Below the pieces are notes generated by a model. The model did not search any database. It was not told the DNA's origin and saw only the letters and a list, made by a program, of their open reading frames with translations. From assembly GCA_942491735.1 (NCBI GenBank), contig CALOCN010000001.1, forward strand, positions 832,040 to 896,039: 64,000 nt of DNA, read 5' to 3'. The translations under genes and the position numbers were made by a program. The stretch is from Candidatus Eiseniibacteriota bacterium (GTDB lineage: Bacteria > Eisenbacteria > RBG-16-71-46 > JABDJR01). Below, piece after piece: positions 5,816-22,280 of the stretch (position 1 is the stretch's first letter; every line of letters begins with the position of its first letter).

Positions 5816-6010
5816 ATCCCCCTCGCCACATCGAGTAGCCCCATGGGCCGGGGTGACCGGAAACCCGACGGAACCTGTCGACAATCCGGCGCCTCGGCCC
5901 GTTTGTTTGATGTGTGGCGGCCTGTAGCTCCACCGGCGAAACCTGCTACAGTGCCTTTTCGTACGCCGGGACGTACCCCCTCGCCTCCGCAACGATACTG
6001 GGAGGTTTCC

Positions 6011-7282: not shown

Positions 7283-7288
7283 AACGGC

Positions 7289-9052
7289 CTAGGGCAAACG
7301 CACGACGCGTTGGGTGCGGCGATGCTGCCCCGCCTGCAGACTCAGCAGATAGACGCCGGAGGCCACCGCGCTTCCGGCGTCGTTCGTTCCGTCCCAACGC
7401 ACTTCGTACGAACCGGCCGGCCGCTCGCCGTCCTCGATGAGCCGGACCCGCCGCCCGCGCAGGTCATAGACCGCGAGTTGGACCCGACCCGGCTCCTGGA
7501 CCTGGAACGCGATGGTGGTGGAGCTGCGGAACGGATTGGGGAACCGGGCCAGCTGGAGCTGCGGTGAGTCCGGGGTGTGGGGAGCGGCCAACTGCCCGTC
7601 AATCCGGAAGTCCGCAACAATCGCCGCGTGATCGCTGGCGATTTCGGTGTCTCCGGCGAGGAGCCCGGTTGCCGCGAGAGTGCTGGGGAGCATGGTTCGG
7701 GTCTCCACCACGAAGTGCGCGCCCAGGGTCATGACGCTTCCCGAGTAGACCACCCAATCCAGTTTCCCCGGCGAGAAGGAGCTGCCGTCGTTGCGCCAGG
7801 TGTAGGCGAAGCGGGCGTCGGGGTGCCGTGGGTTGGCGTCCTCGAGGTCGGACCCGTCCCAGTCCGGCGGGGAGTCCGGGCCCCAGGTTCCGTTGTCGGC
7901 AATGTCCCCGGTGAGCAGGGTGACCAGCTGATCCCGCCACCCCACGAGGTTGAAGTCCCCACAGACCACGAGGGGGGTGTTGACCGGAAGATCCAGAACC
8001 CCGCCCGGGGTGCGTGCATCGTCCAGGAAAGCGATCAGGGCATCCGCCTGCCGCTGGCGGTTGGCGTCCGCGGTGCAGCAGCTCCAATGATTGGCCACCA
8101 CAAGCAGGTCGGTCACATAGGAGGGACCGGGGTCCACCAGGGCAGCGGAGAGCCGGTCGCCCGGGTTGATCTCCCAGGAGTCGAGAATAGGAAAGCGGCT
8201 CACGATCACGTTGCCCGCGTCCCGCTTGACCGCGTGCCAGGCCTCGCCGGGGCCGCTGGGGAGCAGCGTTTCCATCTGATTCGCGACCGCCGAGGCACTA
8301 CTGTTCCAGGCCTCGCAGATGACCCAGACGTCCGGATCAACGGCGTCGGCGATACGATTCTGCGCCGCCTCCCGCGAACCCCCGTCAAAGAGACCGTCGT
8401 TCTCCACATTGTAGGATGCGATCCGCAGGTGGGATGGGTCGTTCCGGGCCAGGGAGAGGGAAGGAATGGGTTGGGGAGCTTCGTCGAACGTGTAGGTCGC
8501 AAGGGAAATGACATCTCCGCTCCCCCCATCGCGCAACACGAGCCGGATCGTGGTCTGGGGAAAGAGGGCCGCTCCCGCGGCCGGGGTGGCGGAACGATCC
8601 AGGGACATCTCGAATCGGGTGTCGCTCACCGTGGGGCCGATGACGAAACCAATGTCGTCGTGGCGAATGGTGTATCCGTTTCCGGCGGCGGTGAACGTCC
8701 CCTCCCGTTGCCCGAACTCCCACACCAAATCCGCCCCGATCCCGGACATGGACTGGCCGGTGCCGGCGTTCATGTCCGTATCGATGCCCAGCTCGATGCC
8801 CTGCCCCTCGTCACCCTGGACCTCGGCCGTGGTGTCGAAGAACAGATACAGCCAGTCCGGGTCGTTGGCCACGACCAGCTGGGTGAAATCGATTCCGCTG
8901 GGGCCATGGTCCCCGCTGGCGTCGATCACGCTGACCGGAATGCCGGCCCATTCGTCGAAGTCACCATCGATACGAACAGGCAGGGAGCCCGCGAACACGG
9001 TCGCGGGAATCAGGGCGAGGAGGGTGACCAGGGTGAGGAGCTGATGATGCAT
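7289..9052 (-). CDS. Secreted endonuclease/exonuclease/phosphatase (EEP)-family protein with a T9SS C-terminal sorting domain.
   Basis: The true start is MHHQLLTLVTLLALIPATVFAGS, a signal peptide, at 9052. The track ORF 7289..10258 is over-extended upstream. The EEP core includes VWVICEAWN...VCGDFN...SDHAAIVADF. The C-terminus is ARFPNPFRSSTTIAFQV...GVYLLSLQAGQHRRTQRVVRLP. Confidence 0.75.
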   Translation of the reverse strand: MHHQLLTLVTLLALIPATVFAGSLPVRIDGDFDEWAGIPVSVIDASGDHGPSGIDFTQLVVANDPDWLYLFFDTTAEVQGDEGQGIELGIDTDMNAGTGQSMSGIGADLVWEFGQREGTFTAAGNGYTIRHDDIGFVIGPTVSDTRFEMSLDRSATPAAGAALFPQTTIRLVLRDGGSGDVISLATYTFDEAPQPIPSLSLARNDPSHLRIASYNVENDGLFDGGSREAAQNRIADAVDPDVWVICEAWNSSASAVANQMETLLPSGPGEAWHAVKRDAGNVIVSRFPILDSWEINPGDRLSAALVDPGPSYVTDLLVVANHWSCCTADANRQRQADALIAFLDDARTPGGVLDLPVNTPLVVCGDFNLVGWRDQLVTLLTGDIADNGTWGPDSPPDWDGSDLEDANPRHPDARFAYTWRNDGSSFSPGKLDWVVYSGSVMTLGAHFVVETRTMLPSTLAATGLLAGDTEIASDHAAIVADFRIDGQLAAPHTPDSPQLQLARFPNPFRSSTTIAFQVQEPGRVQLAVYDLRGRRVRLIEDGERPAGSYEVRWDGTNDAGSAVASGVYLLSLQAGQHRRTQRVVRLP

Positions 9053-9253
9053 CGAGAAAGTATAGGGCAGACAAGTCTGCCTTGAGCGAACAATGCCGAG
9101 TGGACCCACCCAGGGGATGGGCTCCGTTCGTTTCCCGGGTTTCTTTCCGTGCCGTTGCACACTCTCGGCGAAGAATCCGCATGTCCCAGTGACCCGCAAG
9201 CCGGCGCGGGCCGACCCGAGGCCGGCTGGACCCTTCCCAGAGAGGCCACTGCC

Positions 9254-10228
9254 ATGCGACACATCACCGTAATCCTCCTTCTTGTATGCGCTTGGGCGTT
9301 CCCTGCGAGTTCCCTGGCCGGAACCGGGGACCTGAGCCTGGACGCCCCTTTTGACAACCTGGCCTTGGGCCCGGTCGGTACGGGGGGGGCCGCCGCGGGC
9401 CAGCCCATCGTGGTCTCGGCCATGACCGCCAACGTGATCGACACCGGATCGTCCTACGCCCTGGAGGCGATTCACACCGCGCTCCTCGTCCCGGGAGGCG
9501 TCTGGTTCGAGTTCATTGGCGACGAGGAGATCACCTCGGGCACCGTCTGCATCTCCTATACCGTCACGTTCCAGGCGCTGGGGATCTACATCTTCACCAT
9601 CTACGAACAGGGGAGTGTGGGAAGCCAGTTCTCCAAGATGACCCTCAATGCGGGTGGACAGATCTCCTTCTTCGATCAGAACAACCTGGTAGGCGCGATC
9701 GCTACCTCGAGCTATCAGGTCGGCGTTCCGCTGGAGGTTCTCTACGAGTACGACCTGGATGCCGGGACCTACGACGTGAGCCTGGGCGGATCGCTTCTGT
9801 TGGACGACGAGGACCACGGCATCACGACCCGGGGAATCGGTCGACTCATGTTCACCAACAACGCGTTCAGTGCCGGTCACTTCGTCCTGGATGACGTCAA
9901 GGTGCAGAAGGGCGGGGCGGCGCTTGCTGCGGGTCCCGGGGTGGTCCCGGGGTTGGGAATGCTGCATGCCCCGCAGCCCAACCCCATGCGGAGCGGCACC
10001 CGGGTGCGGTTCGACCTGGAGCAGGCGGGAGCGGTGCAGGTGTCCGTGTTCGACGCCACCGGGCGGCGGGTCCGTACGTTGATCAACGGGGCGCTGGGGG
10101 TGGGCACCCACGACATCCGATGGGACGGCGCCGATGACCGGGGGATCACGGTTCCGGCCGGGCTCTATTTTGTGCGGCTCCACTCGGGTGGGCAGGCCGT
10201 TGCGCGCAAGGTCATTCGGGTGGACTGA
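9254..10228 (+). CDS. Secreted protein of unknown function with a T9SS C-terminal sorting domain.
   Basis: Start MRHITVILLLVCAWAFPASSLAG, a signal peptide. The C-terminus is QPNPMRSGTRVRFDLEQAGAVQVSVFDATGRRVRTL...GLYFVRLHSGGQAVARKVIRVD. The upstream part of track ORF 9149.. is 5' leader. Confidence 0.7.
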   Translation: MRHITVILLLVCAWAFPASSLAGTGDLSLDAPFDNLALGPVGTGGAAAGQPIVVSAMTANVIDTGSSYALEAIHTALLVPGGVWFEFIGDEEITSGTVCISYTVTFQALGIYIFTIYEQGSVGSQFSKMTLNAGGQISFFDQNNLVGAIATSSYQVGVPLEVLYEYDLDAGTYDVSLGGSLLLDDEDHGITTRGIGRLMFTNNAFSAGHFVLDDVKVQKGGAALAAGPGVVPGLGMLHAPQPNPMRSGTRVRFDLEQAGAVQVSVFDATGRRVRTLINGALGVGTHDIRWDGADDRGITVPAGLYFVRLHSGGQAVARKVIRVD

Positions 10229-10316
10229 TGACCCTCGGGCTTGAGCTTCGTCGATCATTGAACTAGCCTCTCGTTTGAACGTTCATGCGAGAGCCAGTGA
10301 TTCTTCGGAGGTCTTC

Positions 10317-11324
10317 ATGCCCCGCCTGTCCCGCGTCCTGATCTTCCGTTCCGTGGTCACTCTGCTCGGGGTCTTCGCGATCCTGGGCGTCCCCGCCTGC
10401 AGCGAAGCCGACGATCCGCTCCCGTCCTGGACCGGGGCCCCGCGGGAAGCGCTCATGGAGTTCGTCGAGGCGGTGACCACCGAGGGGTCGGCCGATTACG
10501 TGGAGTCGGCGAACCGCATCGCCACCTTCGACAACGATGGGTGTCTGTGGTCGGAGCAGCCTTTCTACTTCCAGTTGGCCTTCACCATGGACCGGATCAA
10601 GGCGCTCGCTCCCGAGCACCCCGAGTGGTCGACCACCGAACCCTACAAATCGGTGCTGGCCGGGGACGTGGCCGGTGCCCTGGGAGCCGGCAAGAAGGCC
10701 CTGATGGAACTCCTGATGGCGGCTCATGCCGGCAATACCAGCGAGGAGTTCACCGCGATCGTGGTCGAATGGCTGGCGAGCGCGAAGCACCCCGTGACCG
10801 GGAGGCCCTATACCGGGATGGTCTATCAGCCCATGCTCGAGCTCCTGGACTACCTGCGGGCCAACGGGTTCAAGACGTTCATCGTCAGCGGTGGGGGAAT
10901 CGAGTTCATGCGCCCCTGGACCGGGAGGGTCTACGGCATTCCGCCCGAGCAGGTAGTCGGGAGCAGCGTCAAGACGGAGTTCGGAATGAGGGACGGCCAG
11001 CCGGTGTTGAATCGTCTGCCCGAGATGAACTTCATCGACGACGGTCCCGGCAAACCGGTGGGGATCCACGAGCACATTGGCCGGCGCCCCATTCTTGCCT
11101 TCGGGAACTCGGACGGCGACCTGCAGATGCTCCAATGGACCGCGGCCGGTCCCGGGCGGAGCTTCATGGGATTGATCCACCACACCGATGCGGATCGCGA
11201 GTGGGCCTACGACCGCGAATCCCACATCGGGAAGCTGGACAAGGCCCTGGACGAGGCGACCCGGCGGGGCTGGACGGTGGTGGACATGAAGGCGAACTGG
11301 AAAACGATCTACCCGGAGAACTGA
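10317..11324 (+). CDS. HAD-superfamily hydrolase, probably a secreted or lipoprotein form.
   Basis: GGAGG precedes the ATG at 10317. An N-terminal hydrophobic segment ends ...ILGVPAC. The HAD motif I-like segment is FDNDGCLW and the motif IV-like segment is FGNSDGDLQML. Confidence 0.65.
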   Translation: MPRLSRVLIFRSVVTLLGVFAILGVPACSEADDPLPSWTGAPREALMEFVEAVTTEGSADYVESANRIATFDNDGCLWSEQPFYFQLAFTMDRIKALAPEHPEWSTTEPYKSVLAGDVAGALGAGKKALMELLMAAHAGNTSEEFTAIVVEWLASAKHPVTGRPYTGMVYQPMLELLDYLRANGFKTFIVSGGGIEFMRPWTGRVYGIPPEQVVGSSVKTEFGMRDGQPVLNRLPEMNFIDDGPGKPVGIHEHIGRRPILAFGNSDGDLQMLQWTAAGPGRSFMGLIHHTDADREWAYDRESHIGKLDKALDEATRRGWTVVDMKANWKTIYPEN

Positions 11325-11924: not shown

Positions 11925-14900
11925 ATGGACACAGGGCGACGGGAGTTTCTTGCCAGTCACCTGCCCCGGTTCTTCGTACGCCGGAGACCGGACCCCGAAG
12001 ACACGCTACCGTTTCGACAGCAGTTCCCGGCGTCACTCCTGTTTGTCGATGTGGCGGGCTTCACCCGGCTGACCCTGCGGCTCTCCGAACGTGGGCCGGT
12101 GGGAGCCGAGCAACTCTCGGGTTTTCTCGATCGCATCTTCGGTCGGATTACCGGAGTCATCCTCGATCACGGTGGCGACGTGCTCGCCTACGCGGGCGAT
12201 GCCGTTCTCGCGTTCTGGCCCGAGCCTTCAGCCAACAGGCCTACGGAAGGATTGAACGCCGCCGCCCGGGCCGCCTTCGCAATCCAGGGGATCCTTGCCG
12301 ATGCGGCCGCATCCGATATGCCGATCCGGCTTCGGGCCACCCTGGGCGCGGGGACGGTGTCCTGGTTGGAAGTGGGCGGCGTGGGCGACTACTGGCCCTT
12401 TCTCGTGGTCGGGGAAGTGTTCAATGAGGTAGCCATCGCTGACGCGGGCGGAGCGTCGGGAACGGTTGTGGTGACCCGGGAGAGTTGGCCTCTCCTCGCG
12501 GCCACCTGGCGTGGAGAGCCACTCCCCTCGGGTGGAGTCAGGTTGATCGGCCTTCCCCCGGGAGAACCGGGACAGTTGTCGGATTCGCTCCCGTCCGGCC
12601 CCGGTCCCGGGATCGACCGCTACGTGCCACCGTTCGTTCGCGACTGCGGGGAGGCGGGGCGCGATTCCTGGGTCCCGGAATTTCGTCACATCAGCGCGTT
12701 GTTCGTGAACCTGCGTGGGGGAGTGGACTGGGATGAGCCGCTTTCCCTGCACCCTGCGATTCGGCTCCTGCAGGAGACCCTCGCGCGATTCGAAGGGTGT
12801 TTCTATCAGGTCCTTTCGGACGACAAGGGTCTGTCGGTGGTCGCGGCATTCGGACTGCCCTCGTATACCCACGAGGATGACGCCGTGCGAGCCGTTCTGG
12901 CTGCGCAGGAGATGACCGCCAATCTGGCGAGTCTCGGGATCGATGCGTCGTGCGGTGTGGCCACGGGGCTCACCTTCTACGGTCTGTGCGGGTTGGAATC
13001 CCGGCAGCAGTTCACCATGGTGGGTCCGGTCATGAACGCGGCGGCCCGGCTCATGCAGGCTGCCGACCACGGCGTCCTTTGCGACACGGAAACGGCGAGG
13101 GCCGCGGAGCATCCCAGGCTCAGATTCCACGCTCAGGAGGCGATCCGGGCCAAGGGGATCGATGATCCCATCCCCGTTAACCGGCCCCAGGTCGTGGAAC
13201 TGGCGCATCGCACGCGGGCCACGACGGCGCGCCCGGACCTGGTCGGACGATCCACGGAACGGGGCGCCCTGCTCGACGTCCTTGACCGCGCATCAGGCGG
13301 TGCGTGTGCCAGGGCGGTGGTTGAAGGCGAGCCGGGTATCGGCAAGTCGGCCCTGTTGGACTTCGCGGTCGCGGAGGCACAAGCCCGCGGGTTTTCCGTC
13401 TTTCGGGGGGCGGGAGACGCGATCGAGAAACACACTCCCTACTTTGCCTGGCGAACCATGATCGCCGGCCTGTTCGGCCTGGATCCCACCGCGCCGATCG
13501 GGGATCAACGTCGGGCCGTGCTCGGGCGTCTCGAGAAGAGTCCGAACCTTGCCCTCTTGGGCGCCCTCGCCAATCGGTTCCTTCCGTTCGAGATCCCCGA
13601 GACCGACGCCACCCGTCAAATGGACGAGGAGTCGCGGGCCGATGCGTCCCATCGTCTGATCCTGCGCCTGATTCAGGACGCGGCTGCCGGCTCCCCGATT
13701 CTCATTGCATTCGAGGACGGCCACTGGCTCGATGCCGCCTCCTGGACCTTGCTCTCCCAGGCCTGGTTCCGCCTGACCCCCATGGCGGCGATCCTTACCA
13801 CCCGGCGGGTGGCGGAGCCAGGTCCAGGAATACGGGACGTGCTCGCCGAGCCGGAACTGAAACACCTGCAGCTGTGCCCGCTCGAGTCGGGAGGCGTGAC
13901 GGAGATGGTGTGTCGGCGGCTCGGTGTGGATCAACTGCCACCGGTGGTGTCCAGAGTGATCGCGGCCCGATCGGGCGGCAACCCCTTCTTCGCCGAGGCG
14001 CTGACCCTCGGTCTGCTCGACGCAGGTCTGATCGAGGTCCACGAAGGGCGCTGTCGTCTGGGTGACGGTGCGGAGACCCCGTCCCTCTCCTTCGACGAGG
14101 CCGTTGAGGCGGCCGGGTTCCCCGGCTCGATACGGGGCGTCCTCGCGGCGAGGCTCGACCGACTGCCTTCAGCGCCACGGCTCACCCTGAAAGTGGCGAG
14201 CGTGTTCGGTCAGCGGGTTCCGGTCGAGGCCCTGCAGGCACTCCATCCCGTTTCCGTGGATCGCCGGAGCCTTGAGGAAAACCTCGGGATCCTTGATCAG
14301 CGTGGGTTGATTCGCATGGATGTGCCGGCAGGTGCATTCGAGTTCGGTCACGCACTGACCCGTGACGTTGCCTATGAGTCCATGGCCTTCGCACAACGCC
14401 GTCCGCTGCATCTTGCGACCGCGCAGTGGATCGAGAAGCGCCACGTGGACGCCCTGTCTCCCCACTACGCTGCGCTCTCTCATCATTGGCGACACGCCCA
14501 GGACCCACAAAGGGCCATGGACTACGCGAACCGCGCCGGACATCTGGCTCTCAAGCACTTCGCCAATACGGAGGCGGTCCGCCACCTGAGGGTTGCCCTG
14601 GAACTGGACGATGAACTCAATGCGGATCCCGACTGGCAGGGAATCGATCCCGCACGTCGGGCCATCTGGGAGTTCCATCTCGGCAAGGCCTACGTGAACG
14701 GATCGGGGTACGGGGAAGGACGCCCCTTCCTTGAGCGCGGCCTGGCGGAACTCGATCGGGCACCTCCCGGGGGTACCCTGCCGAGGATGAGGGGGCTCTT
14801 CGCGGACGTGATGCGTCAGGTCCTGCACCGGGTCCGCCCCGGGAGCTGTCTGGGGCGCCGTCAGATGGACGCGGGACGTCTCCTGGAATCCTCCCGGGCG

Positions 14901-15911
14901 CTGGAGGCCCTGACCGAAATCCACTATATGGGGGACGACATGCTTCCCTGTCTTCACTCGGCGATCCGATCCCTCAACCTGGCCGAGCTGGCCGGCCCGT
15001 CCGAGGAATTGGCTCGGGGGTATGCGTCGGTGGGCGCCATACTCGGATTCATGCGGCTGCGTGGTGCGGCGCGATCCTACGCGGATCGGGCCCTCGCCGT
15101 GGCCCGCGAGGTGGACAGCCCGCGTGCCGAAGCGTATGTCTCCCTGGCCACCGCGGTGTATCTGGCCGGGATCGGCGAGTGGGAAGAAGCGTCGTCGCTC
15201 CTGGGCAACGCCGCGGACATTGCGGCCTCGATGGGGAATCACCGACGCCGTCAGGACGCGGTCCTCCAGTTGGCGGCGATCAGTTTCTACCGGGGTGATT
15301 TCCACGGCACGCTGGAACTCGCCTCGCAGCTGCACGATTCGGCATCCGAAACGCGCCACCTGCGCTACCTGGGTGTCGCCGCGCGTCGGCAAGCCTATTG
15401 CCACTTTGCCCTTGGGCAACTGGAACCGGTTGAAGGGTGCATCCGCACCCTGGAGCAGGGCTCCGGATTCGAAGGGGGGTTCGAGCATCTGGACCTGTAC
15501 GTCATCCGGGCCATGCATCGACTTCGCTCGGGGGATCAGGAGGGGGCGGTCGAATCGGCGACGGCGGCGAGCCGGATCCTGGAGGCCACTTCGCCGGCGC
15601 TGTTCGACATTCTGCACGACTACACCACCCTGGGAGAAGTGTGGTTGGGATTGGACGAGGCGTCATGGCGAGCGTCCGGTCAGGCCGGGCTTTCGCGGGT
15701 CCTGCGATCGCTCAAGTCCTACGGACTCATGTTTCCCATTGGTCGACCGGCGACGTTGAGGCTTCGTGGAGAGTTGGCCCTGCGCCATGGGAAGGCGGGC
15801 CGGGCACGCAGGACGTGGCGCAAGGCGCTGGCTGCCGCCGAGGATCTGGGGATGCCCTTCGAGAAGGCGTTGCTGACCACGTTGTTGACCCGGAACGAGG
15901 AAGTTCAATGA
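11925..15911 (+). CDS. Multidomain signalling protein with two tandem class-III adenylate/guanylate cyclase homology domains. A P-loop NTPase (STAND-like) domain and a TPR-like helical C-terminal region follow.
   Basis: The first cyclase domain has FVDVAGFT...YAGDAVLAFW, so the metal-binding Asp residues are present. The second domain has FVNLRGG, a degenerate metal site. The Walker A motif is GEPGIGKSALLDF. A long alpha-helical TPR-like tail follows. The gene starts 6 nt after the previous stop. Confidence 0.8.
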   Translation: MDTGRREFLASHLPRFFVRRRPDPEDTLPFRQQFPASLLFVDVAGFTRLTLRLSERGPVGAEQLSGFLDRIFGRITGVILDHGGDVLAYAGDAVLAFWPEPSANRPTEGLNAAARAAFAIQGILADAAASDMPIRLRATLGAGTVSWLEVGGVGDYWPFLVVGEVFNEVAIADAGGASGTVVVTRESWPLLAATWRGEPLPSGGVRLIGLPPGEPGQLSDSLPSGPGPGIDRYVPPFVRDCGEAGRDSWVPEFRHISALFVNLRGGVDWDEPLSLHPAIRLLQETLARFEGCFYQVLSDDKGLSVVAAFGLPSYTHEDDAVRAVLAAQEMTANLASLGIDASCGVATGLTFYGLCGLESRQQFTMVGPVMNAAARLMQAADHGVLCDTETARAAEHPRLRFHAQEAIRAKGIDDPIPVNRPQVVELAHRTRATTARPDLVGRSTERGALLDVLDRASGGACARAVVEGEPGIGKSALLDFAVAEAQARGFSVFRGAGDAIEKHTPYFAWRTMIAGLFGLDPTAPIGDQRRAVLGRLEKSPNLALLGALANRFLPFEIPETDATRQMDEESRADASHRLILRLIQDAAAGSPILIAFEDGHWLDAASWTLLSQAWFRLTPMAAILTTRRVAEPGPGIRDVLAEPELKHLQLCPLESGGVTEMVCRRLGVDQLPPVVSRVIAARSGGNPFFAEALTLGLLDAGLIEVHEGRCRLGDGAETPSLSFDEAVEAAGFPGSIRGVLAARLDRLPSAPRLTLKVASVFGQRVPVEALQALHPVSVDRRSLEENLGILDQRGLIRMDVPAGAFEFGHALTRDVAYESMAFAQRRPLHLATAQWIEKRHVDALSPHYAALSHHWRHAQDPQRAMDYANRAGHLALKHFANTEAVRHLRVALELDDELNADPDWQGIDPARRAIWEFHLGKAYVNGSGYGEGRPFLERGLAELDRAPPGGTLPRMRGLFADVMRQVLHRVRPGSCLGRRQMDAGRLLESSRALEALTEIHYMGDDMLPCLHSAIRSLNLAELAGPSEELARGYASVGAILGFMRLRGAARSYADRALAVAREVDSPRAEAYVSLATAVYLAGIGEWEEASSLLGNAADIAASMGNHRRRQDAVLQLAAISFYRGDFHGTLELASQLHDSASETRHLRYLGVAARRQAYCHFALGQLEPVEGCIRTLEQGSGFEGGFEHLDLYVIRAMHRLRSGDQEGAVESATAASRILEATSPALFDILHDYTTLGEVWLGLDEASWRASGQAGLSRVLRSLKSYGLMFPIGRPATLRLRGELALRHGKAGRARRTWRKALAAAEDLGMPFEKALLTTLLTRNEEVQ

Positions 15912-16858
15912 TGCCAGCCGACCCCGAACCACGCCGCTACCTGGAGCACTCGATCCGGCGACTCCGGACAACACTCGAGTCGGACCTTTCTCCGGCCCAC
16001 GAGCCGGTCCTGGAGTGGATCCACGCGCTCTCTCCCACCGCTGCCCCCGAGGATTACTTCCTGCACCCGCGTTCCTATCCGATTCTCCAGCTCCCGGTCT
16101 GGGCCACCCGTGGTGCGTCGGGGGGGCTGGGGGAGGAGGACCTGGAAGCGCTTACCTACTCCACCGTCTGCGGCTACTACGCCATCCGTCTCATGGACGA
16201 CCTCATGGATCGGCCGGATCGCGCCCCGATGCACCTCTTGCCCTCGGTGGCCTTCTTCCTGGGTGAGTTCCAGGCCGTGTATACGCGTTGGTTTCCACCC
16301 GAGCACGTGTTCTGGTCCGAGTTTCGCGAGCTGTGGTACGGGACGCAGGCCTGTGCCATCGCCGATGTCGCGCTCGAAACCATTGATCGTGAGGCGTTCG
16401 AGAGGATTTCGGGGAACAAGATGCGGGCAGGCTTGATACCGGTGTCGGCGGTTCTGCATCGCACCGGACTCGCTGACCGCATCCCCGCCTGGCGTCGTTT
16501 CTGCGATCAGCTGGGGCCGTGGGTGCAGATGATGGACGACCTCTTCGACTGGCATCAGGATCTTCGCGCCGGGAGCCGCACCTACTTCCTGAGCGAGGCC
16601 CAGACCCGGCGTGCCCCGGCCCAGTCCGTGATGGAGTGGGTCGTGCTTGGAGGATTCGACTGGGGCGTGGAAGCACTGAACGTCCGATTGGTAGCCCTGC
16701 GGGAAGCCGCGCGGGGAGTGGGTTCCCCGGATGTGGATGGGCACCTGGACCAGCGTGCGGAGATCCTGGAGGAGTTGAAGGGCCTGGGTCGAGGACTCAC
16801 CGAACTGGGCAGACTGACCAGGATTGTGTGCTACGATGCCGACGACCGACGTCCTTAA
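15908..16858 (+). CDS. Isoprenoid-synthase-fold protein (polyprenyl synthase / ComQ-like) with two DDxxD motifs.
   Basis: The ATG at 15908 overlaps the cyclase stop by ATGA, indicating translational coupling. The motifs are YYAIRLMDDLMDRPD and, about 120 residues later, VQMMDDLFDWHQDL. This spacing resembles the FARM/SARM arrangement of the trans-IPPS fold. The call rests on inference from motifs only. Confidence 0.5.
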   Translation: MMPADPEPRRYLEHSIRRLRTTLESDLSPAHEPVLEWIHALSPTAAPEDYFLHPRSYPILQLPVWATRGASGGLGEEDLEALTYSTVCGYYAIRLMDDLMDRPDRAPMHLLPSVAFFLGEFQAVYTRWFPPEHVFWSEFRELWYGTQACAIADVALETIDREAFERISGNKMRAGLIPVSAVLHRTGLADRIPAWRRFCDQLGPWVQMMDDLFDWHQDLRAGSRTYFLSEAQTRRAPAQSVMEWVVLGGFDWGVEALNVRLVALREAARGVGSPDVDGHLDQRAEILEELKGLGRGLTELGRLTRIVCYDADDRRP

Positions 16859-16886
16859 GACACTCACTCCCACCTAGGAATACGAA

Positions 16887-17093
16887 ATGAATGTCAAGGA
16901 TCTCGTAGACAAGTATATGCACGATTCCGCCTTTCGCAGCGGTCTTCAGAACGACCCCGAAGGCACGCTCCGGGGCGCGGGGGTCAACCCCACTCCGGAA
17001 ATGTTGAATGCCGTCAAGAACGTGGACCACGGATCATTGAAGGCTGTCGCCGACTCCTTCGACCCGTTCGATCCCGGCGGCATCAGCTGCTGA
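16887..17093 (+). CDS. Precursor peptide with an NHLP/Nif11-type leader. It is 68 aa with a Gly-Gly motif and a C-terminal Cys.
   Basis: An RBS (agga) lies 8 nt upstream. The leader is MNVKDLVDKYMHDSAFRSGLQNDPEGTLRGAGVNPTPEMLNAV, matching the D-AF---L--DP---L---GV--P NHLP pattern. The tail is ...SFDPFDPGGISC. The peptide has no Trp and a single Cys, at the C-terminus. Confidence 0.6.
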   Translation: MNVKDLVDKYMHDSAFRSGLQNDPEGTLRGAGVNPTPEMLNAVKNVDHGSLKAVADSFDPFDPGGISC

Positions 17094-17200
17094 TCGGCTG
17101 ACCCTCCCTCCAGGAGGTCGTCCTGCGCTCGACGCTCATTGATGCAGCCCTTTCCCAGGAAGTCCTTGGCATCACGGCCCTGGTCGGGGACCTGCTATGG

Positions 17201-17821
17201 GTGGTGGCGTACTACCTGGTCATCCGCGTCGGCTTTCGGGAGAAGTCCTACGGGATCCCCCTCGTAGCCATCCTGCTCAACCTTTCCTGGGAGCTGATCT
17301 ACACATTCATCTTCCCACCCGAGATGCTGATCAAGCGGGTGTTGTTCGGTGCGTGGTTCGGGATCGACATGCTGGTGTTCTACCAGCTGCTGCGCTACGG
17401 GAAACGTGTCCAGGTCATTCCGGATATTCAACGGCACTTCTATGCCATTGTCTTCCTGACCTTCCTCTGGACCTTTGTCGGTCACTTGACGTTCCGGGTC
17501 ACCTTCTCCGACCTGGGTGGCGTGCGGGTCGCGTTCATGCAGAACATGGTCATGAGCGTCCTCTTCGTGTTCATGCTCTTCTCCCGCCGCGACCTGAGGG
17601 GACTTTCCTACGGCGCGGCCTGGTTCAAGATGATCGGGACCCTGATCATCTCCGTGTCGGACTTCCTCATGGTTCGTGGCTCCCAGGCCGAGTACGGATT
17701 CATGACCTTCCTCTATGTTTCCATTGTCATCTTCGATGCGTTCTACCTGGGGTTGTTCACGCGTGAACGGGCCCGTCTCAAGGCAGGGGAGCCGGACCGG
17801 ATCCATCCCGCCCCTGCCTAG
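17201..17821 (+). CDS. Polytopic (~6 TM) integral membrane protein of unknown function.
   Basis: Track ORF with a GTG start. Hydrophobic helices include IPLVAILLNLSWELIYTFIF and FYAIVFLTFLWTFVGHL. The in-frame region upstream (to 17102) is also hydrophobic, so the true start may lie upstream at a non-canonical codon. The stop overlaps the convergent kinase gene. Confidence 0.55.
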   Translation: MVAYYLVIRVGFREKSYGIPLVAILLNLSWELIYTFIFPPEMLIKRVLFGAWFGIDMLVFYQLLRYGKRVQVIPDIQRHFYAIVFLTFLWTFVGHLTFRVTFSDLGGVRVAFMQNMVMSVLFVFMLFSRRDLRGLSYGAAWFKMIGTLIISVSDFLMVRGSQAEYGFMTFLYVSIVIFDAFYLGLFTRERARLKAGEPDRIHPAPA

Positions 17822-19092
17822 GACCAGGCAACGAGGGTGGCCAGATCCAGGTCGCGTTCCGCCGGATCAAACCGGAGGGCACGATCCAGGAACGCGTGCA
17901 TTTCCGCGCTGATCCCCGTTCCAATGTCCTCGCGCCGAGGCAGCTCGAAGACCGCCTTCTCCCGGATGACCGTCATGAGATCGGTTCCGGAAAACAGAGG
18001 GCGGCCGGCCAGGGCCTCGTAGGCGGTACAGGCCAGGGAGTAGAGATCGGCCCGGGGCCCCACCTCGCTTCCGGAGAGCTGTTCCGGCGGCATGTAGATG
18101 GGGCTACCCAGGAGGGTCCCGGGGAGGGTGTGGGTCACTCCCTGGTCGGGCTCCGGGCGAGCGACCCCGAAGTCCATGAGCCGCGGCCGATCGTTCTCGT
18201 TCACCATGATGTTGCTGGGCTTGAGATCGCGATGCACGATGCCTTGTTCATGGACGTAGCGGAGGGCCTCGGCCAGTCGCCCCATCAGGGTGCGGACCCG
18301 TTTCTCGCCCAGGGCGCCTTCTTCCCGGATGAGTGCGTCCAGGGTACGGCCGGCGCAGAACTCCAGGACCAGGAAGTAGGTATTGAAGGCCCGGAAGCGG
18401 CCGTGGAGTCGCGCGACCCCGGGGTGATCCAGTCCTTGCACGATGTCGGCTTCGCGCCGAAACCGCGCGGTGGCGCCCAGGTGATAGAGAAGCCGGTGGC
18501 TGAGCATCTTGAGCGCGACCCGTTTCCCGGACTCCACATGTTCGGCTTCGTAGACGATGGCCATCCCGCCCCGGCCCAGAACCCGGGTGATGCGATACCC
18601 CTCGAGCACCTTCCCGCCCAGACCATCCCGCGCCCCCGTGCCCAGGCGCTCGGCGACCAGGTTCGTGCAGACCGCGGCCAGGTCGGGATAGCGACGCGCC
18701 ACCCGGTGAAAGGCATCGGATGGGAGCTGGAACGCTCTCCCGGAGGATTCCGCAATGATGGTCGCGGTGCGTGGTTCCTCGGTGACAAGAGCCATTTCCC
18801 CGATGACATCACCGGCACCGAAGCGTCCTACGATGGTCGAATCCTGGGCGGGATCGGCCACCTCGGCACGGGCCGCTCCCTCGAGGAGTACGAGCAGGAA
18901 CTCCGGGGGATCTCCCTGGCGAATGAGGAGTTCGCCCTCATCGAAGTGGAGCTCGGTGGCATTCTCGAGCACCGCGTCCAGCGAGTCCCAGGGTTGCCCG
19001 TGGAACAGCACCGACGCGGCGATCTCATCGCGTAGCGCGGAGGAAGGGGGAACGGAACGCACCATGGATGGCAGTATAGCGAATGTGCCCAT
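17818..19092 (-). CDS. Ser/Thr protein kinase with a cyclic-nucleotide-binding domain.
   Basis: The N-terminal CAP_ED segment has ...GDVIGEMALVTEEPRTATIIA... The kinase domain has GRGGMAIVYEA...VALK, HRDLKPSNIMV and DFGVA. Confidence 0.85.
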   Translation of the reverse strand: MGTFAILPSMVRSVPPSSALRDEIAASVLFHGQPWDSLDAVLENATELHFDEGELLIRQGDPPEFLLVLLEGAARAEVADPAQDSTIVGRFGAGDVIGEMALVTEEPRTATIIAESSGRAFQLPSDAFHRVARRYPDLAAVCTNLVAERLGTGARDGLGGKVLEGYRITRVLGRGGMAIVYEAEHVESGKRVALKMLSHRLLYHLGATARFRREADIVQGLDHPGVARLHGRFRAFNTYFLVLEFCAGRTLDALIREEGALGEKRVRTLMGRLAEALRYVHEQGIVHRDLKPSNIMVNENDRPRLMDFGVARPEPDQGVTHTLPGTLLGSPIYMPPEQLSGSEVGPRADLYSLACTAYEALAGRPLFSGTDLMTVIREKAVFELPRREDIGTGISAEMHAFLDRALRFDPAERDLDLATLVAWS

Positions 19093-19154: not shown

Positions 19155-22100
19155 CTAGAGAATCAGCTTCATCAGCCCCGCCATGGTCCGCTGCATGCCG
19201 CTGCCGGGAGGGAGTAGTGCGTTGAGGTCGTCCACGGTCTCCACCCACTGGCAAAGCCCCGTCAGCAGCATGAAGTCCAGCATGCCGACAAGGCTTCTCC
19301 AGCCTGCCATGGTGATCATGGCCTCCCCGTCCATCAGCATGCTGTGATAGTCCATGTTCACGCTGCCCACGGTCAGATAGAGCACCATCCGTTCCCGCTC
19401 TTGCGCAGGCGTGTCCGCGAGGAGGTTGGTGACCATTCGTGCAGTCTGTTGCCTGAGGGCGTCGGGAAGTCGCGTGACGTCGGGGTGGGAGTCGCCGCTC
19501 GTCGATCCGAGTTCCGCCAGATAGGTGATGTACTCCTTCAGGATTCCCGCCCATTCGGGCCGGGCGGCGATCCGATCCCAGGCATTCACGGAGGCGAACA
19601 TGTTCGCCTTGAGGTGCATCTTGGGGCTGATCAGCGTGTCCTCCTCGTGGAGATACCGGACCGCGTAGCCCAGGGAGTCGAGTTGCGCGCCCGCGTTCTC
19701 CGCGACGGCAAGGAACTCCGGGCGATCGGGATAGATCTTCTTCTGCCACGGTACCGATGTGGCAACCGCCTGGGCGAACCTGCCGGCCAGATCGCCCACC
19801 CCCACCTTGGGGGCGTAGAGACCCACCTTGAGGAGTCCTCCTTCCCGGGCGATGTAGGAGTCCAGCGCATTGGCGACGACAAGAAGCCTGGCAAGCATCC
19901 CGTTGGCGCGTACCAGCTGCGGGGTCCCCGCGCTCGGAGCGGAACCCGCCGTGGGGGCGATCACGAGGACGCGGCATCCGCGTAGCGCGCTGCCCGAGAG
20001 CAGGGAGGCATAGATGTAGCTTTGCCACAGGGAGTCCGGCACCTTGAGAACGGAACCGGGGGGCATGAGGCTGTAGAGGACCGCCTTGACCGGGTTGATG
20101 GGTTTGGGACGGAACCCGGTCTGGTTGTGGAGCTGCAGGACCGCGGCTTCATCGTCGAACGCCTCCGCGCCCCCGGCGAGGAACTCCCGGACCTGGCTCG
20201 TGTAGTCGTAGCCGAAAGGGCGCGCCCGGAGCGGGGCGGGGATCTCCGACTCCGTGAAGCCCTGGTTCAGGAGGAGTTCGCGGGCGGCGGTTTTTGTTTC
20301 CAGGGCTTCCGGTCCCTCGATCATGACCGCGCGATCCTCCCAGTTCGCCCCCACGTAGTGCTCGCCGATCCCCATGCCGGTGAACATGGCCCGGCCGAGA
20401 TACGGGTCCTCCTCGGTCACGTCGTAGAAGGCGATCTTCCGGTGATCCCGCATCATGTTGTCGGGGATGGGGATGATGCCGACGCTGTGAAAACTGTAGA
20501 ACGACGGGTCGGCCGGATTCGTGATGTTTACATGGACCTTGACCAGGTTCTTCAGCCACTTGTCGCCGAACTGGGAGCGGGCGACATGCAGGGCGGTTGA
20601 GCTGTCGACGGCGGCACGGAGATCCCTCTGCAGTGATCGGAGGTGGTCTTCCCACTCCCGGTAGTCCCCGGGAAGGTTCGCCATCTCGTCCATGGGCTCC
20701 TGCAGGACGCGCAGCCACATTCGCGACTTGTTGAGCTCGAAGTAGTGTTGATCGAGGAAGATCATGTACATGGGCATCGACCCGGTCCTGTCGTAGGCCC
20801 GTGCGTGCTCGATCAGCGCTTCCAGGTAGTTCACCGTGTGTTGATAGGCGATCGCGTCGGGGTTCCCGTTTCCGTTGAGACCACGAATGTCGTGGATCCA
20901 CAGGACGTGGTACTCCTTCGCCTTGCGAACCGACCGCGCGATCTCGAACTGGAACTCCTCGTTCATGACGTACCAGACGCGGTTGCCCGGGGAGAATCGT
21001 TCCTGGGCCGCGCCTTCGATGATGGCGTTGATCTCCTCCTGGGTGTCGTGATCCTCCGGCTTGAGTGCGTACTGGAGCGGCAGCCAGACAAAACGGGTGT
21101 CGCCCCACTGTTTCCGCAGGGTCATGCGGTTCTCGTCCACGATGTCGCACAGCGTGTGGAACACGAGGAATGCCTGTCGGGCCTGGAACGGCGACACGTC
21201 GTTCTCGGAGGTCAACCACGCGCCGAACGCGGTTTTGGCCACGGCGAACGGGGCGCTCAAGCCGTCGTTCGTCTTCCGTTCACCCAGCAGGCTGTTGTAG
21301 CGGAGCAGCACTTCGTTGAGCAGGATCCCGCGGGCCGCGGCGCTTGCCTTGCGCCCGGTTGCACTGCTGTGACCCGTGGCGAAGGGCGTGCCGTCGACAG
21401 CAATGGAGAAAGCCCGGTCCAGCTCCGCGTGATAGACCCTGATCTCCTCGTTGAGGGTGTGGCCCTCCGGAAACAGGGCGTCGGTGGAGTCCATGTGGGT
21501 CACGAGCGTCGCCATGTAGGGAGCCAAGGCCCGGTGCGGATCCGCGTCGGACTTGTCCACCAACGGCTGGCTCAGGCGGGTGATCCAATGCGCACGTTCC
21601 CGCACGCCCGTGAGCGGGTCATCCAGTCGGGGATCCAGATCGACCTCGGCAACGCGGTATGGTTTGCGACTCTCAAGCCGGACTGCATCGTGGGGCGGCC
21701 GTGTCTTGCCCAGGTTCCGTGCCGGGAGCGGGAAGCTCAGCCCCACGCTCAGGGTGTTGTGATAGCCGGGCAGGTAGCGGATATCCAGGGTGGATCCGTT
21801 GCCCAGGATTCCTCCCCGTCGCATGGGGAGGCTCAGTTGCAGCATGAACGAGGCGGCGGTGTCCTTGATGTTGTAGTCGACTCCGAGCCCGAAGTAGAGC
21901 GAGGGGACCTTGAAGTAGGCTCGCCCACCGCCGTCGAGGTCGGCACCGCCGTCGCTGGGATTGGAACTCCTCGCCCCCACGTATCCCTCGAGACCCAGGG
22001 CGGCGATTCCGACCACCGGGCTTCCCAGGCTCTTCCAGACCCCGAGGTTCACGAGGCCGGCGAAGGAATCCAGCTGTCCCGGGCGATACCATTGGCCCTC

Positions 22101-22280
22101 CACGCCCGCGTAGGTGTTGTACACGGCGGGCATTCCCAGGGATCGGGTGATCCCGCCTCTCTGGGGGGTGGCGGTGTCCCTGGCCTCGGCCGGCGGGACC
22201 GGATTCGTGGCGAAGGCCAGGCCGAGGAGCGCGGCGAGGAACCCGGCGGGGCGGCCCCCGCTACGGAACGGAATCGTCAT
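19155..22280 (-). CDS. Large (1041 aa) secreted or outer-membrane protein of unknown function. The N-terminal segment is beta-strand-rich.
   Basis: The signal peptide is MTIPFRSGGRPAGFLAALLGLAFA. The first ~200 aa are Gly/Tyr-rich with alternating strands. The large C-terminal domain has no motif I recognise. Confidence 0.5.
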   Translation of the reverse strand: MTIPFRSGGRPAGFLAALLGLAFATNPVPPAEARDTATPQRGGITRSLGMPAVYNTYAGVEGQWYRPGQLDSFAGLVNLGVWKSLGSPVVGIAALGLEGYVGARSSNPSDGGADLDGGGRAYFKVPSLYFGLGVDYNIKDTAASFMLQLSLPMRRGGILGNGSTLDIRYLPGYHNTLSVGLSFPLPARNLGKTRPPHDAVRLESRKPYRVAEVDLDPRLDDPLTGVRERAHWITRLSQPLVDKSDADPHRALAPYMATLVTHMDSTDALFPEGHTLNEEIRVYHAELDRAFSIAVDGTPFATGHSSATGRKASAAARGILLNEVLLRYNSLLGERKTNDGLSAPFAVAKTAFGAWLTSENDVSPFQARQAFLVFHTLCDIVDENRMTLRKQWGDTRFVWLPLQYALKPEDHDTQEEINAIIEGAAQERFSPGNRVWYVMNEEFQFEIARSVRKAKEYHVLWIHDIRGLNGNGNPDAIAYQHTVNYLEALIEHARAYDRTGSMPMYMIFLDQHYFELNKSRMWLRVLQEPMDEMANLPGDYREWEDHLRSLQRDLRAAVDSSTALHVARSQFGDKWLKNLVKVHVNITNPADPSFYSFHSVGIIPIPDNMMRDHRKIAFYDVTEEDPYLGRAMFTGMGIGEHYVGANWEDRAVMIEGPEALETKTAARELLLNQGFTESEIPAPLRARPFGYDYTSQVREFLAGGAEAFDDEAAVLQLHNQTGFRPKPINPVKAVLYSLMPPGSVLKVPDSLWQSYIYASLLSGSALRGCRVLVIAPTAGSAPSAGTPQLVRANGMLARLLVVANALDSYIAREGGLLKVGLYAPKVGVGDLAGRFAQAVATSVPWQKKIYPDRPEFLAVAENAGAQLDSLGYAVRYLHEEDTLISPKMHLKANMFASVNAWDRIAARPEWAGILKEYITYLAELGSTSGDSHPDVTRLPDALRQQTARMVTNLLADTPAQERERMVLYLTVGSVNMDYHSMLMDGEAMITMAGWRSLVGMLDFMLLTGLCQWVETVDDLNALLPPGSGMQRTMAGLMKLIL

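Follow-up and report, generated by a model that had tools for sequence, protein, structure and literature searches.

A conserved operon joining an isoprenoid-synthase-fold enzyme, an Os1348-family peptide and a Pyr4-like membrane protein: a candidate pathway for terpene modification of a peptide C-terminus

The locus considered here lies within a 64,000-nucleotide stretch of a Candidatus Eiseniibacteriota contig (the window) and comprises a four-gene operon and a convergent gene, with the following features:

11925..15911, + strand: 1328-aa signalling protein; Pfam detects a nucleotide cyclase, an AAA_16 ATPase and MalT-like TPRs
15908..16858, + strand: 316-aa enzyme, proposed peptide prenyltransferase of an unnamed family, with a trans-isoprenyl-diphosphate-synthase-like (trans-IDS-like) fold
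16196..16210, + strand: first Asp-rich motif of the enzyme, D97-D-L-M-D101, FARM-like
16535..16561, + strand: second Asp-rich motif, D210-D-L-F-D214-W-H-Q-D218, SARM-like and also NSE/DTE-like
16887..17093, + strand: 68-aa precursor peptide, Os1348 family of the NHLP clan (NF038399)
17067..17090, + strand: variable C-terminal tail of the peptide, FDPGGISC, with the proposed modification site Cys68 (codon 17088-17090)
17123..17821, + strand: Pyr4-like transmembrane terpene cyclase with seven predicted helices (Pfam PF25129)
17818..19092, - strand: 424-aa cytoplasmic cNMP-binding and Ser/Thr kinase protein (Pfam), convergent with the operon

The first gene of the operon encodes the 1328-aa protein, in which Pfam recognises Guanylate_cyc, AAA_16 and TPR_MalT regions and which gives a partial, below-cut-off match to NCBIfam TIGR03903 ("TOMM system kinase/cyclase fusion protein"). 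Its stop codon (TGA, 15909-15911) and the enzyme's ATG (15908-15910) form the ATGA overlap described in a first-pass annotation; the peptide ORF begins 28 bp past the enzyme stop, again as reported there, and is preceded by AGGAA at a distance of 8 nt. The 424-aa protein carries cNMP_binding (residues 48-135) and Pkinase (166-413) domains. The observation of the locus made in that annotation was confirmed to be real, and its interpretation is partly supported.

That the 316-aa enzyme adopts an isoprenoid-synthase fold is supported by its predicted structure (pLDDT 92.8), which most closely resembles trans-IDS enzymes and IDS-like prenyltransferases (Ord1 and MoeN5 among them). A resemblance to ComQ had also been claimed, but membership of ComQ or polyprenyl_synt is not supported at the sequence level; an HMM search returned no polyprenyl_synt or ComQ match, and Pfam yielded neither polyprenyl_synt nor terpene-synthase models. 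Both DDxxD motifs noted earlier are present, but DDLMD occupies residues 97-101 (first placed at about 105) and DDLFD residues 210-214 (first placed at about 226), which puts them 113 rather than roughly 120 residues apart. The enzyme family counts 245 representatives at E <= 1e-30 when each 50%-identity cluster contributes one. The family consensus of the first motif is D-[ND]-x-x-D and that of the second [ND]-D-x-x-[DG]-W-x-x-D; R94, D97 and D101 do not vary among 34 homologues, D211, W215 and D218 are likewise invariant, and Q207 almost so. The first motif lies at the C-terminal end of a long helix (76-101) in the model. A weak alignment (E = 0.14) of the family profile with FPP synthase 4f62 pairs the second motif stretch with the QVQDDIID SARM and places the invariant K171 opposite the "KT" lysine; the second motif can also be read as an NSE/DTE-like triad. 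An RRG after the first motif, which is a feature of chain-elongating synthases, is absent from this region of the enzyme.

The proposal that the small ORF encodes an NHLP-type precursor is upheld by its score against NF038399 (60.2 bits, cut-off 40), and an HMM built from related peptides matched it with E = 1.6e-25; scores against TIGR03793 and TIGR04509 were below their cut-offs. These profile matches support a genuine NHLP-clan precursor of the Os1348 family, in which the family domain spans residues 2-60 and a short tail follows to Cys68. As first described, the peptide terminates in ...DPFDPGGISC, has its single Cys at the final position and contains no Trp. The Gly-Gly, earlier taken as a cleavage site, was rejected as a conserved one, the closest Cys-type relative ending in ...TAQGISC.

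The membrane protein, initially described as having roughly six transmembrane segments, left without a family and suggested to be an exporter or processing factor, is assigned by profile matching to the Pyr4-like transmembrane terpene cyclases (PF25129 Pyr4-TMTC; E = 1.4e-26, 94 bits, cut-off 27). This domain is present in all 32 homologues (206-278 aa, or 225-278 aa without the window's own 206-aa annotated product), and E57, D82, D205, N53 and K169 are invariant in the family. The AlphaFold2 model (pLDDT 93.6), which includes the part upstream of the GTG at 17201 used by ORF callers, shows seven long helices. Both the homology and the confidently modelled first helix begin at about 17120, and a Shine-Dalgarno sequence, AGGAGG, is found at 17112-17117; translation probably begins near CTG 17123, giving a protein of about 232 aa. 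The solved folds nearest to the model are the 7-helix KDEL receptor, SWEET and cystinosin proteins, no solved Pyr4-family structure being among its structural matches, and some homologues occur in unrelated genomic contexts; these observations count against the pathway proposed below.

In 124 related loci that were retrieved, spanning the Chloroflexota, Acidobacteriota, Gemmatimonadota, Myxococcota, Actinomycetota and Latescibacterota, the enzyme has an NF038399 peptide beside it. This arrangement is far beyond chance, and the gene order cyclase/ATPase, enzyme, peptide is conserved. Most of the loci long enough to show one have a homologue of the 1328-aa protein immediately upstream of the enzyme, and kinases or cNMP-binding proteins repeatedly adjoin the pair. 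Two unrelated protonation-type terpene cyclases fill the same cluster position: the Pyr4-like protein or, in Chloroflexota relatives, a 623-aa protein in which an IDS-like domain is fused to a class-II-like cyclase domain, the latter matching drimenol synthase and MstE as well as the QW motifs of squalene-hopene cyclase. The stand-alone 316-aa family occurs additionally even in fusion-carrying loci. That the membrane protein is instead a 7-helix exporter or receptor-like protein, the product being a linear prenylated pheromone like ComX or PalX, is quite improbable: besides the strong Pyr4-TMTC match, a domain that every homologue carries, the acidic residues inside its helices are invariant, a soluble class-II-cyclase-like domain takes its place in other clades, and in relatives an FAD monooxygenase comes next, as in meroterpenoid pathways.

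The type of cyclase tracks the last residue of the peptide. In Pyr4-type loci this residue is Thr or Cys in all 43 peptides (27 distinct), whereas in fusion-type loci it is V, A, L, I, M or F in 27 of 28. The importance earlier attached to the C-terminal Cys is borne out to this extent, since the preceding residues vary in Pyr4-type peptides and conservation of the tail is limited to the last one; a direct exchange of ...GISC for ...GIST is seen inside one enzyme subclade. Accessory genes follow the same residue: ICMT/PEMT-family methyltransferase genes occur in 26 loci, all with Thr-ending peptides, and the 10 loci in which the Pyr4-like gene is followed by an FAD monooxygenase gene all have Cys-ending peptides. 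The Cys-type loci without this monooxygenase are, besides that of the window, one other locus and two on short, truncated contigs. In 40 of the 43 Pyr4-type cases the gap between enzyme and peptide genes is -26 to +83 bp. These correlations and this tight coupling would go unexplained if the enzyme were a terpene or diphosphate synthase whose free product is cyclised by the membrane protein, the peptide being no substrate but a partner that regulates or binds the cyclase and kinase signalling proteins. Diphosphate synthases share the enzyme's fold, the NSE/DTE-like reading of motif 2 would suit such an activity, no neighbours are better conserved than the signalling proteins, and crystals of Os1348 itself showed a stable helical dimer (PMC7726476); with the lack of a polyprenyl_synt or terpene-synthase Pfam match also set against it, this explanation is considered unlikely.

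Given the conserved four-gene operon, with its enzyme, Cys-ending peptide and membrane cyclase, the product is probably a peptide bearing a cyclised terpene on its last residue. Positions 15908-17821 are proposed, with a probability of about 0.5, to encode a RiPP-type pathway in which the C-terminal Cys is prenylated by the enzyme and the chain then cyclised by the Pyr4-like protein. The 316-aa enzyme would recognise the Os1348/NHLP-type precursor through the latter's roughly 60-residue helical domain, ionise a prenyl diphosphate on Mg2+ bound by D97/D101 and D210/D211/D214/D218, and move the prenyl group to the C-terminal residue, most likely the thiol of Cys68. The 7-helix cyclase would then use its invariant Glu/Asp residues to protonate the attached chain at the distal double bond and cyclise it, and the cyclase/ATPase/TPR protein and cNMP-binding Ser/Thr kinase may regulate production or sense the product via a cyclic nucleotide, in a signalling role. 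In favour of this pathway count the trans-IDS-like fold, the invariant Asp-rich motifs and "KT"-type lysine, synteny, the cyclases, the accessory genes and published precedents. Against it, the window contains no FAD monooxygenase/epoxidase gene, no ICMT-like gene and no evident protease or exporter, and the characterised trans-IDS-like peptide prenyltransferases covered by PMC13290415 all act on Trp, which the window's peptide lacks. Moreover, the last residue being aliphatic in the other clade, a side-chain acceptor on the last residue cannot hold family-wide.

A peptide can also serve as a mere scaffold, as in the logic of pearlin, PQQ or mycofactocin. Were Cys68 prenylated and cyclised on such a carrier and the last residue or residues then cleaved off, a small amino-acid-terpenoid metabolite or signal would result. 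With the NF038399 domain extending to residue 60, only about 8 residues remain as a "core", of which the last alone is conserved, and a conserved HExxH protein with a fused cNMP-binding domain, encoded between the enzyme and peptide genes in the other clade, could be the releasing protease; however, that protein matched no protease family and the window's operon has no protease gene, and this route is regarded as doubtful.

The proposed modification of the peptide has published precedents. Isoprenoid modification, previously stated not to be described for NHLP precursors, is in fact known: in the NHLP-type PalX, PalQ attaches a prenyl group to a Trp that is strictly C-terminal (PMC10853753), and PMC13290415 summarises work (Hubrich et al. 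2024) in which ChrPC/NctPC prenylate RiPP precursors and cyclise the chain on them. The kind of product is therefore not itself new; what would be new, if true, are the Cys/Thr acceptor, the enzyme family and the Pyr4-type cyclase. In PalQ/PalX (Paenibacillus alvei) and ComQ/ComX (Bacillus), as here, an isoprenoid-synthase-fold enzyme sits beside a precursor peptide and a kinase gene, and the first Asp-rich motif is kept while the second is altered. However, their acceptor is Trp (C-prenylation, pyrroloindoline), ComQ and polyprenyl_synt models have no detectable sequence relationship to the window's enzyme, the partner kinase is a membrane histidine kinase rather than a cytoplasmic cNMP-binding one, and the present locus adds a terpene cyclase. 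With ChrPC/NctPC, as that summary presents them, would be shared the prenylation of a proteusin/NHLP- or Nif11-type precursor followed by cyclisation of the chain, the P domain of ChrPC is trans-IDS-like, and the ChrPC layout is repeated in the 623-aa fusion, which joins an IDS-like to an MstE/SHC-like domain; in contrast, prenyltransferase and cyclase are separate genes here, the cyclase is an integral membrane protein of Pyr4 type rather than MstE-like, and the characterised systems summarised there modify Trp.

The succession of a prenyltransferase and a 7-helix Pyr4-family cyclase is otherwise that of meroterpenoid pathways (fungal Pyr4, AusL, Trt1 and PaxB; actinobacterial XiaH of xiamycin), whose cyclases share conserved acidic residues with the membrane protein. 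The FAD monooxygenase of the 10 Cys-type relatives resembles the epoxidase of the known prenyltransferase, epoxidase and Pyr4 cyclase triad (PMC11109268), but an epoxidase is what the window lacks; the meroterpenoid substrates are polyketides, indoles and squalene-derived terpenes, never a ribosomal peptide, and the prenyltransferases are of UbiA or PaxC type, unlike the trans-IDS-like enzyme here. If Cys S-prenylation holds, the product would share a C-terminal S-prenyl-cysteine with eukaryotic CaaX processing and fungal a-factor-type pheromones (FTase/GGTase, Rce1/Ste24, ICMT/Ste14), and the ICMT/PEMT-family gene of Acidobacterial relatives recalls prenylation followed by carboxyl methylation. 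However, the peptide has no CaaX box because its Cys is already the last residue, the alpha/beta heterodimeric CaaX prenyltransferases have an unrelated fold, and ICMT-like genes accompany Thr-ending, not Cys-ending, peptides. Finally, the NF038399 family also includes the precursor of cluster OS3 of Pseudomonas sp. Os17, Os1348, a small helical protein whose short C-terminal extension has been tied to antibiotic activity (PMC7726476); its neighbours encode a GNAT, a peptidase-like protein and a SagB-type dehydrogenase and, unlike here, no isoprenoid enzymes.

The proposed peptide prenyltransferase and the genes around it are arranged in the window as follows.

11925-15911, + strand: cyclase/AAA_16/TPR protein, 1328 aa; its TGA overlaps the enzyme ATG
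15908-16858, + strand: enzyme, 316 aa
16887-17093, + strand: precursor peptide, 68 aa; starts 28 bp after the enzyme gene, with AGGAA ahead of its start
ORF end at 17821, + strand: membrane protein (Pyr4-like), after the peptide gene
17818-19092, - strand: cNMP-binding domain fused to a Ser/Thr kinase, 424 aa; converges on the membrane-protein gene

The overlap of the enzyme ATG with the upstream TGA and the 28-bp gap to the 68-aa ORF behind AGGAA, both described in the first-pass annotation, hold at these coordinates. The two Asp-rich motifs of the enzyme are likewise present, although at positions (97-101, DDLMD; 210-214, DDLFD) slightly off the first estimate. The observation itself is thereby confirmed, and the first interpretation of the locus, as one producing an isoprenoid-modified peptide, is partly supported. 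A scan for promoters and terminators gave no signal exceeding shuffled background. Domain-model searches identified nucleotide-cyclase, AAA_16 and MalT-like TPR regions in the upstream 1328-aa protein, together with a partial match to the 'TOMM system kinase/cyclase fusion' model.

The enzyme was originally described as a ComQ-like protein of the isoprenoid-synthase fold. [quoted passage not shown] Sequence membership in ComQ or polyprenyl_synt was not upheld, as the enzyme matched no Pfam or NCBIfam family at E <= 1 and a single-sequence search of the PDB returned no match. The family profile found one FPP synthase only in the PDB, with a weak E of 0.14 over the stretch from the 'KT' motif to the second Asp-rich motif (SARM); this alignment sets K171 against the 'KT' lysine and the second motif against the FPP-synthase SARM. 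On the confident model, the Foldseek matches and this weak profile alignment, the enzyme is trans-IDS-like by fold, yet by sequence it is a member of neither the polyprenyl synthases nor ComQ.

A word-indexed search returned 34 homologues of the enzyme, all unnamed. Their alignment with it revealed S85, Y90, R94, D97, D101, K171, D211, W215 and D218 to be invariant, along with an F-L-S motif, and gave the family consensus D-[ND]-x-x-D ... Q-x-x-[ND]-D-x-x-[DG]-W-x-x-D. A chain-elongating synthase was considered and rejected, there being no polyprenyl_synt (PF00348) match at E <= 1 and no RRG after motif 1 in the alignment; RRG at this place is an IPP-binding basic motif of such synthases. The second motif has the form [ND]DxxD, and the nearly invariant Q207 lies three residues ahead of it. 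Known trans-IDS-like peptide prenyltransferases keep the first Asp-rich motif and possess an altered second motif with a conserved Gln just upstream (PMC13290415), to which Q207 is a candidate equivalent. An exhaustive profile search among 1.84 billion entries, counting one representative per 50%-identity cluster, recovered 245 representatives at E <= 1e-30 and 1321 at E <= 1e-3. One of these family representatives, P0149 (848 aa), carries the enzyme domain at 12-314 plus approximately 530 further residues; such a naturally occurring fusion might point to a functional partner.

The precursor peptide ends ...DPFDPGGISC, its sole Cys being the last residue, and Trp as the acceptor was rejected because the peptide has none. 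It scored 60.2 bits with NF038399 ('Os1348 family NHLP clan protein'; cut-off 40), as compared to 14.9 bits with TIGR03793 (cut-off 50.9), so that the earlier assignment to NHLP/Nif11 leaders stands for the Os1348 family of the NHLP clan and fails for the canonical NHLP models. Six of seven related peptides tested with NF038399 scored 49-59 bits; the truncated peptide of locus L040 fell under the cut-off at 30.6. Residues 2-60 belong to the domain, after which some eight variable residues make up the tail. Cleavage of the leader at the double Gly, proposed initially, was rejected since the Gly-Gly ahead of the tail varies among relatives. A homologue search with the window peptide returned only the peptide itself, and occurrence of the peptide without the enzyme is answered at the family level only, through Os1348 (PMC7726476).

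Searching GTDB genomes and JGI metagenomes yielded 44 + 80 related loci, spanning Chloroflexota, Acidobacteriota, Gemmatimonadota, Myxococcota, Actinomycetota, Latescibacterota and others, and the gene order cyclase/ATPase, enzyme, NF038399 peptide recurs throughout. Two cluster types were recognized. The window belongs to type B, in which the peptide gene is found -26 to +83 bp after the enzyme gene in 40 of 43 loci and is followed by a Pyr4-like gene. With type A, mostly from Chloroflexota, a 553-aa HExxH and cNMP-binding protein is encoded between enzyme and peptide, and a 623-aa protein after the peptide. In its N-terminal half, this 623-aa protein is distantly paralogous to the 316-aa family; a profile of its C-terminal half detected the QW motifs of squalene-hopene cyclase (3e-4), bacterial drimenol synthase (1.5e-3) and MstE (0.026). 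The full-length protein (L039 8954-10825 and homologues, about 20 loci) has no Pfam or NCBIfam match and looks like a prenyltransferase-cyclase fusion of the ChrPC type. The fused form occurs only in the type A clade, while the window has separate genes and a Pyr4-like cyclase. That two unrelated protonation-type terpene cyclases fill equivalent places in the clusters speaks strongly, if indirectly, for a pathway in which a prenyl chain is first built and then cyclised.

The membrane protein downstream of the peptide, which could not be placed in a family at first, is now a clear member of PF25129, 'Pyr4-like transmembrane terpene cyclases' (E = 1.4e-26; 94.1 bits, cut-off 27). All 32 homologues carry PF25129, with lengths of 206-278 aa, or 225-278 aa without the 206-aa annotated product of the window, and E57, D82, D205, N53 and K169 are invariant in the 32 sequences. 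We presume E57/D82/D205 to be equivalent to the acidic residues E63/D218 reported for Pyr4 by Itoh et al. 2010. Homology begins at about 17120, 80 nt upstream of the GTG at 17201 chosen by ORF callers and the public annotation, and no in-frame ATG, GTG or TTG is present at the homology start. The frame across 17102-17203 is open from 17102, with AGGAGG at 17112-17117 followed by CTG at 17123. The model of the 232-aa version (pLDDT 93.6) predicts seven long helices, the upstream segment providing most of helix 1, the transmembrane helix that annotation from GTG 17201 largely omits. These features point to a rare CTG/ATT start or to a sequencing error. Some Pyr4-like homologues reside in unrelated neighbourhoods.

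The last residue of the peptide differs between the cluster types. All 43 peptides of the Pyr4-type loci end in Thr or Cys; among their 27 distinct sequences, 19 have Thr and 8 have Cys. V, A, L, I, M or F is last in 27 of 28 peptides from type A loci. Positions -8 to -3 of the tail vary freely. None of 27 type A peptides contains Trp, and the Trp of type B leaders is unconserved. When the enzymes were placed on a neighbour-joining tree, the window fell together with a Gemmatimonadales locus whose peptide terminates in ...AQGISC and with others whose peptides terminate in ...A[QS]GIST, a direct Cys/Thr exchange within one context. Cys termini occur in at least three clades of the tree.

Accessory genes also track the last residue. 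Methyltransferase genes of the ICMT/PEMT family (Pfam) were found at 26 loci, all with Thr-ending peptides, and those for membrane methyltransferases beside the cluster include L002 931-1647, L004 4917-5633 and L019 10482-11273, with 23 other loci. A FAD monooxygenase gene follows the Pyr4-like gene at 10 loci, all with Cys-ending peptides. In L021 (FAD monooxygenase at 7854-8993) the two genes are translationally coupled, and 8990-10776 on the opposite strand holds a DUF4135/LanM-N-terminal-like gene and a SAM methyltransferase; in L125 (FAD monooxygenase at 5715-7477), a 2OG-Fe(II) oxygenase is encoded between it and the Pyr4-like gene. A 2OG oxygenase is likewise encoded at the locus from which the closest Pyr4-like homologue comes. 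Across the whole 64-kb window there is no ICMT-like gene and no homologue of the FAD monooxygenase even at E <= 10, and epoxide-initiated cyclisation in the window was rejected on the latter ground.

The enzyme is proposed to bind the helical Os1348/NHLP domain of the peptide and to ionise a prenyl diphosphate with Mg2+ held by both Asp-rich motifs. The C-terminal residue would then be alkylated, here on the thiol of Cys68, and the Pyr4-like cyclase would next cyclise the prenyl chain, in the window presumably by direct olefin protonation because no epoxidase is encoded. We infer each of these steps, and assign the overall model a probability of roughly one half. The side chain of the last residue is the favoured acceptor because the terminus of type B peptides is strictly Thr or Cys. 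The ICMT-family genes point the same way: the classical reaction of such enzymes is methylation of a carboxylate left free on a prenylated C-terminal residue, which implies that the carboxylate is not itself the acceptor. The side chain is favoured also because PalQ needs its acceptor to be exactly C-terminal (PMC10853753). As type A termini are aliphatic, one and the same acceptor cannot hold for the entire enzyme family. A wider proposal, held tentatively and at somewhat lower odds, is that of a widespread, hitherto undescribed bacterial lipidation system wherein a new trans-IDS-like prenyltransferase family alkylates the side chain of a C-terminal Cys (S-) or Thr (O-) on an Os1348/NHLP precursor and a Pyr4-type membrane cyclase cyclises the chain on the peptide, with prior epoxidation, or carboxyl methylation by an ICMT-family enzyme, in some lineages. 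If true, no S-prenylated RiPP and no Pyr4-family cyclase working on a peptide would have preceded it, and bacteria would possess a counterpart to a-factor-type pheromones.

The modification of NHLP precursors in this manner was initially thought to be undescribed, a claim that is too strong because the concept of prenylating and cyclising NHLP-type precursors is already published. PalQ prenylates the C-terminal Trp of NHLP-type PalX, and a kinase gene is adjacent (PMC10853753); the fused maturases ChrPC and NctPC attach a geranylgeranyl chain to Trp and cyclise it (Hubrich et al., Chem 2024, as summarised in PMC13290415). According to a 2026 review, bacterial peptide prenylation occurs on C, N and O atoms only, with no S-prenylation given, and all characterised trans-IDS-like peptide prenyltransferases are Trp-specific (PMC13290415). 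The substrates linked so far to Pyr4-type cyclases are polyketides, indoles and triterpenes (PMC11109268). In contrast to the known Trp-prenylating systems, the enzyme family here is detected by no model, the window peptide is without Trp and the type B terminus is Cys or Thr. Unlike ChrPC with its MstE-like C domain, the cyclase is of the Pyr4 type and encoded by a separate gene. Relatives of the window further differ from known peptide-prenylation systems by the addition of ICMT-like and FAD-monooxygenase genes, and the cluster as a whole by its constant nucleotide cyclase/ATPase/TPR and cNMP-binding neighbours. A eukaryote-type CaaX system was also rejected: Cys is last, leaving no aaX, the IDS-like fold is different from that of the alpha/beta protein prenyltransferases, and the window lacks an ICMT-like gene.

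Were the C-terminal Cys/Thr prenylated, sulfur would join the known chemistry of bacterial peptide prenylation, Pyr4-type membrane cyclases would enter ribosomal peptide biosynthesis, and a new prenyltransferase family of about 245 clusters (50% identity, E <= 1e-30) in at least six phyla would be defined. These findings concern specialists of both RiPPs and terpenoids, and because cyclase type, methyltransferase and monooxygenase strictly track the last peptide residue, they lead to directly testable predictions.

That nucleotide cyclase/ATPase/TPR and cNMP-binding proteins constantly accompany the cluster suggests that the product has a regulated role or acts as a signal. On the wider proposal, it might be detected by the STAND-type cyclase/ATPase/TPR protein conserved along with the pathway and by the cNMP-binding kinase. 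The window pathway is flanked by the former (11925-15911) and the latter (17818-19092, - strand), and in Chloroflexota relatives the cNMP-binding domain is fused instead to the 553-aa HExxH protein (L039 6932-8593). Across phyla, therefore, the peptide system keeps components of cyclic-nucleotide signalling in its neighbourhood.

Beyond the kinase gene, a 1041-aa ORF (19155-22280, - strand) with an N-terminal signal-like segment and no Pfam match is probably unrelated to the pathway, as it is absent as a conserved gene from the related loci. Farther upstream, a 359-aa protein (9149-10228) bears a C-terminal FlgD-Ig/Por_Secre_tail sorting domain (type IX secretion), a hint that the host's phylogenetic surroundings are the FCB group or Gemmatimonadota-like. 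Within locus L024 (7226-7736), the main peptide is followed by two more small ORFs with NHLP-like N-termini; each terminates in ...KGQWIPGG, suggesting that precursors of a second type are encoded within the same cluster.
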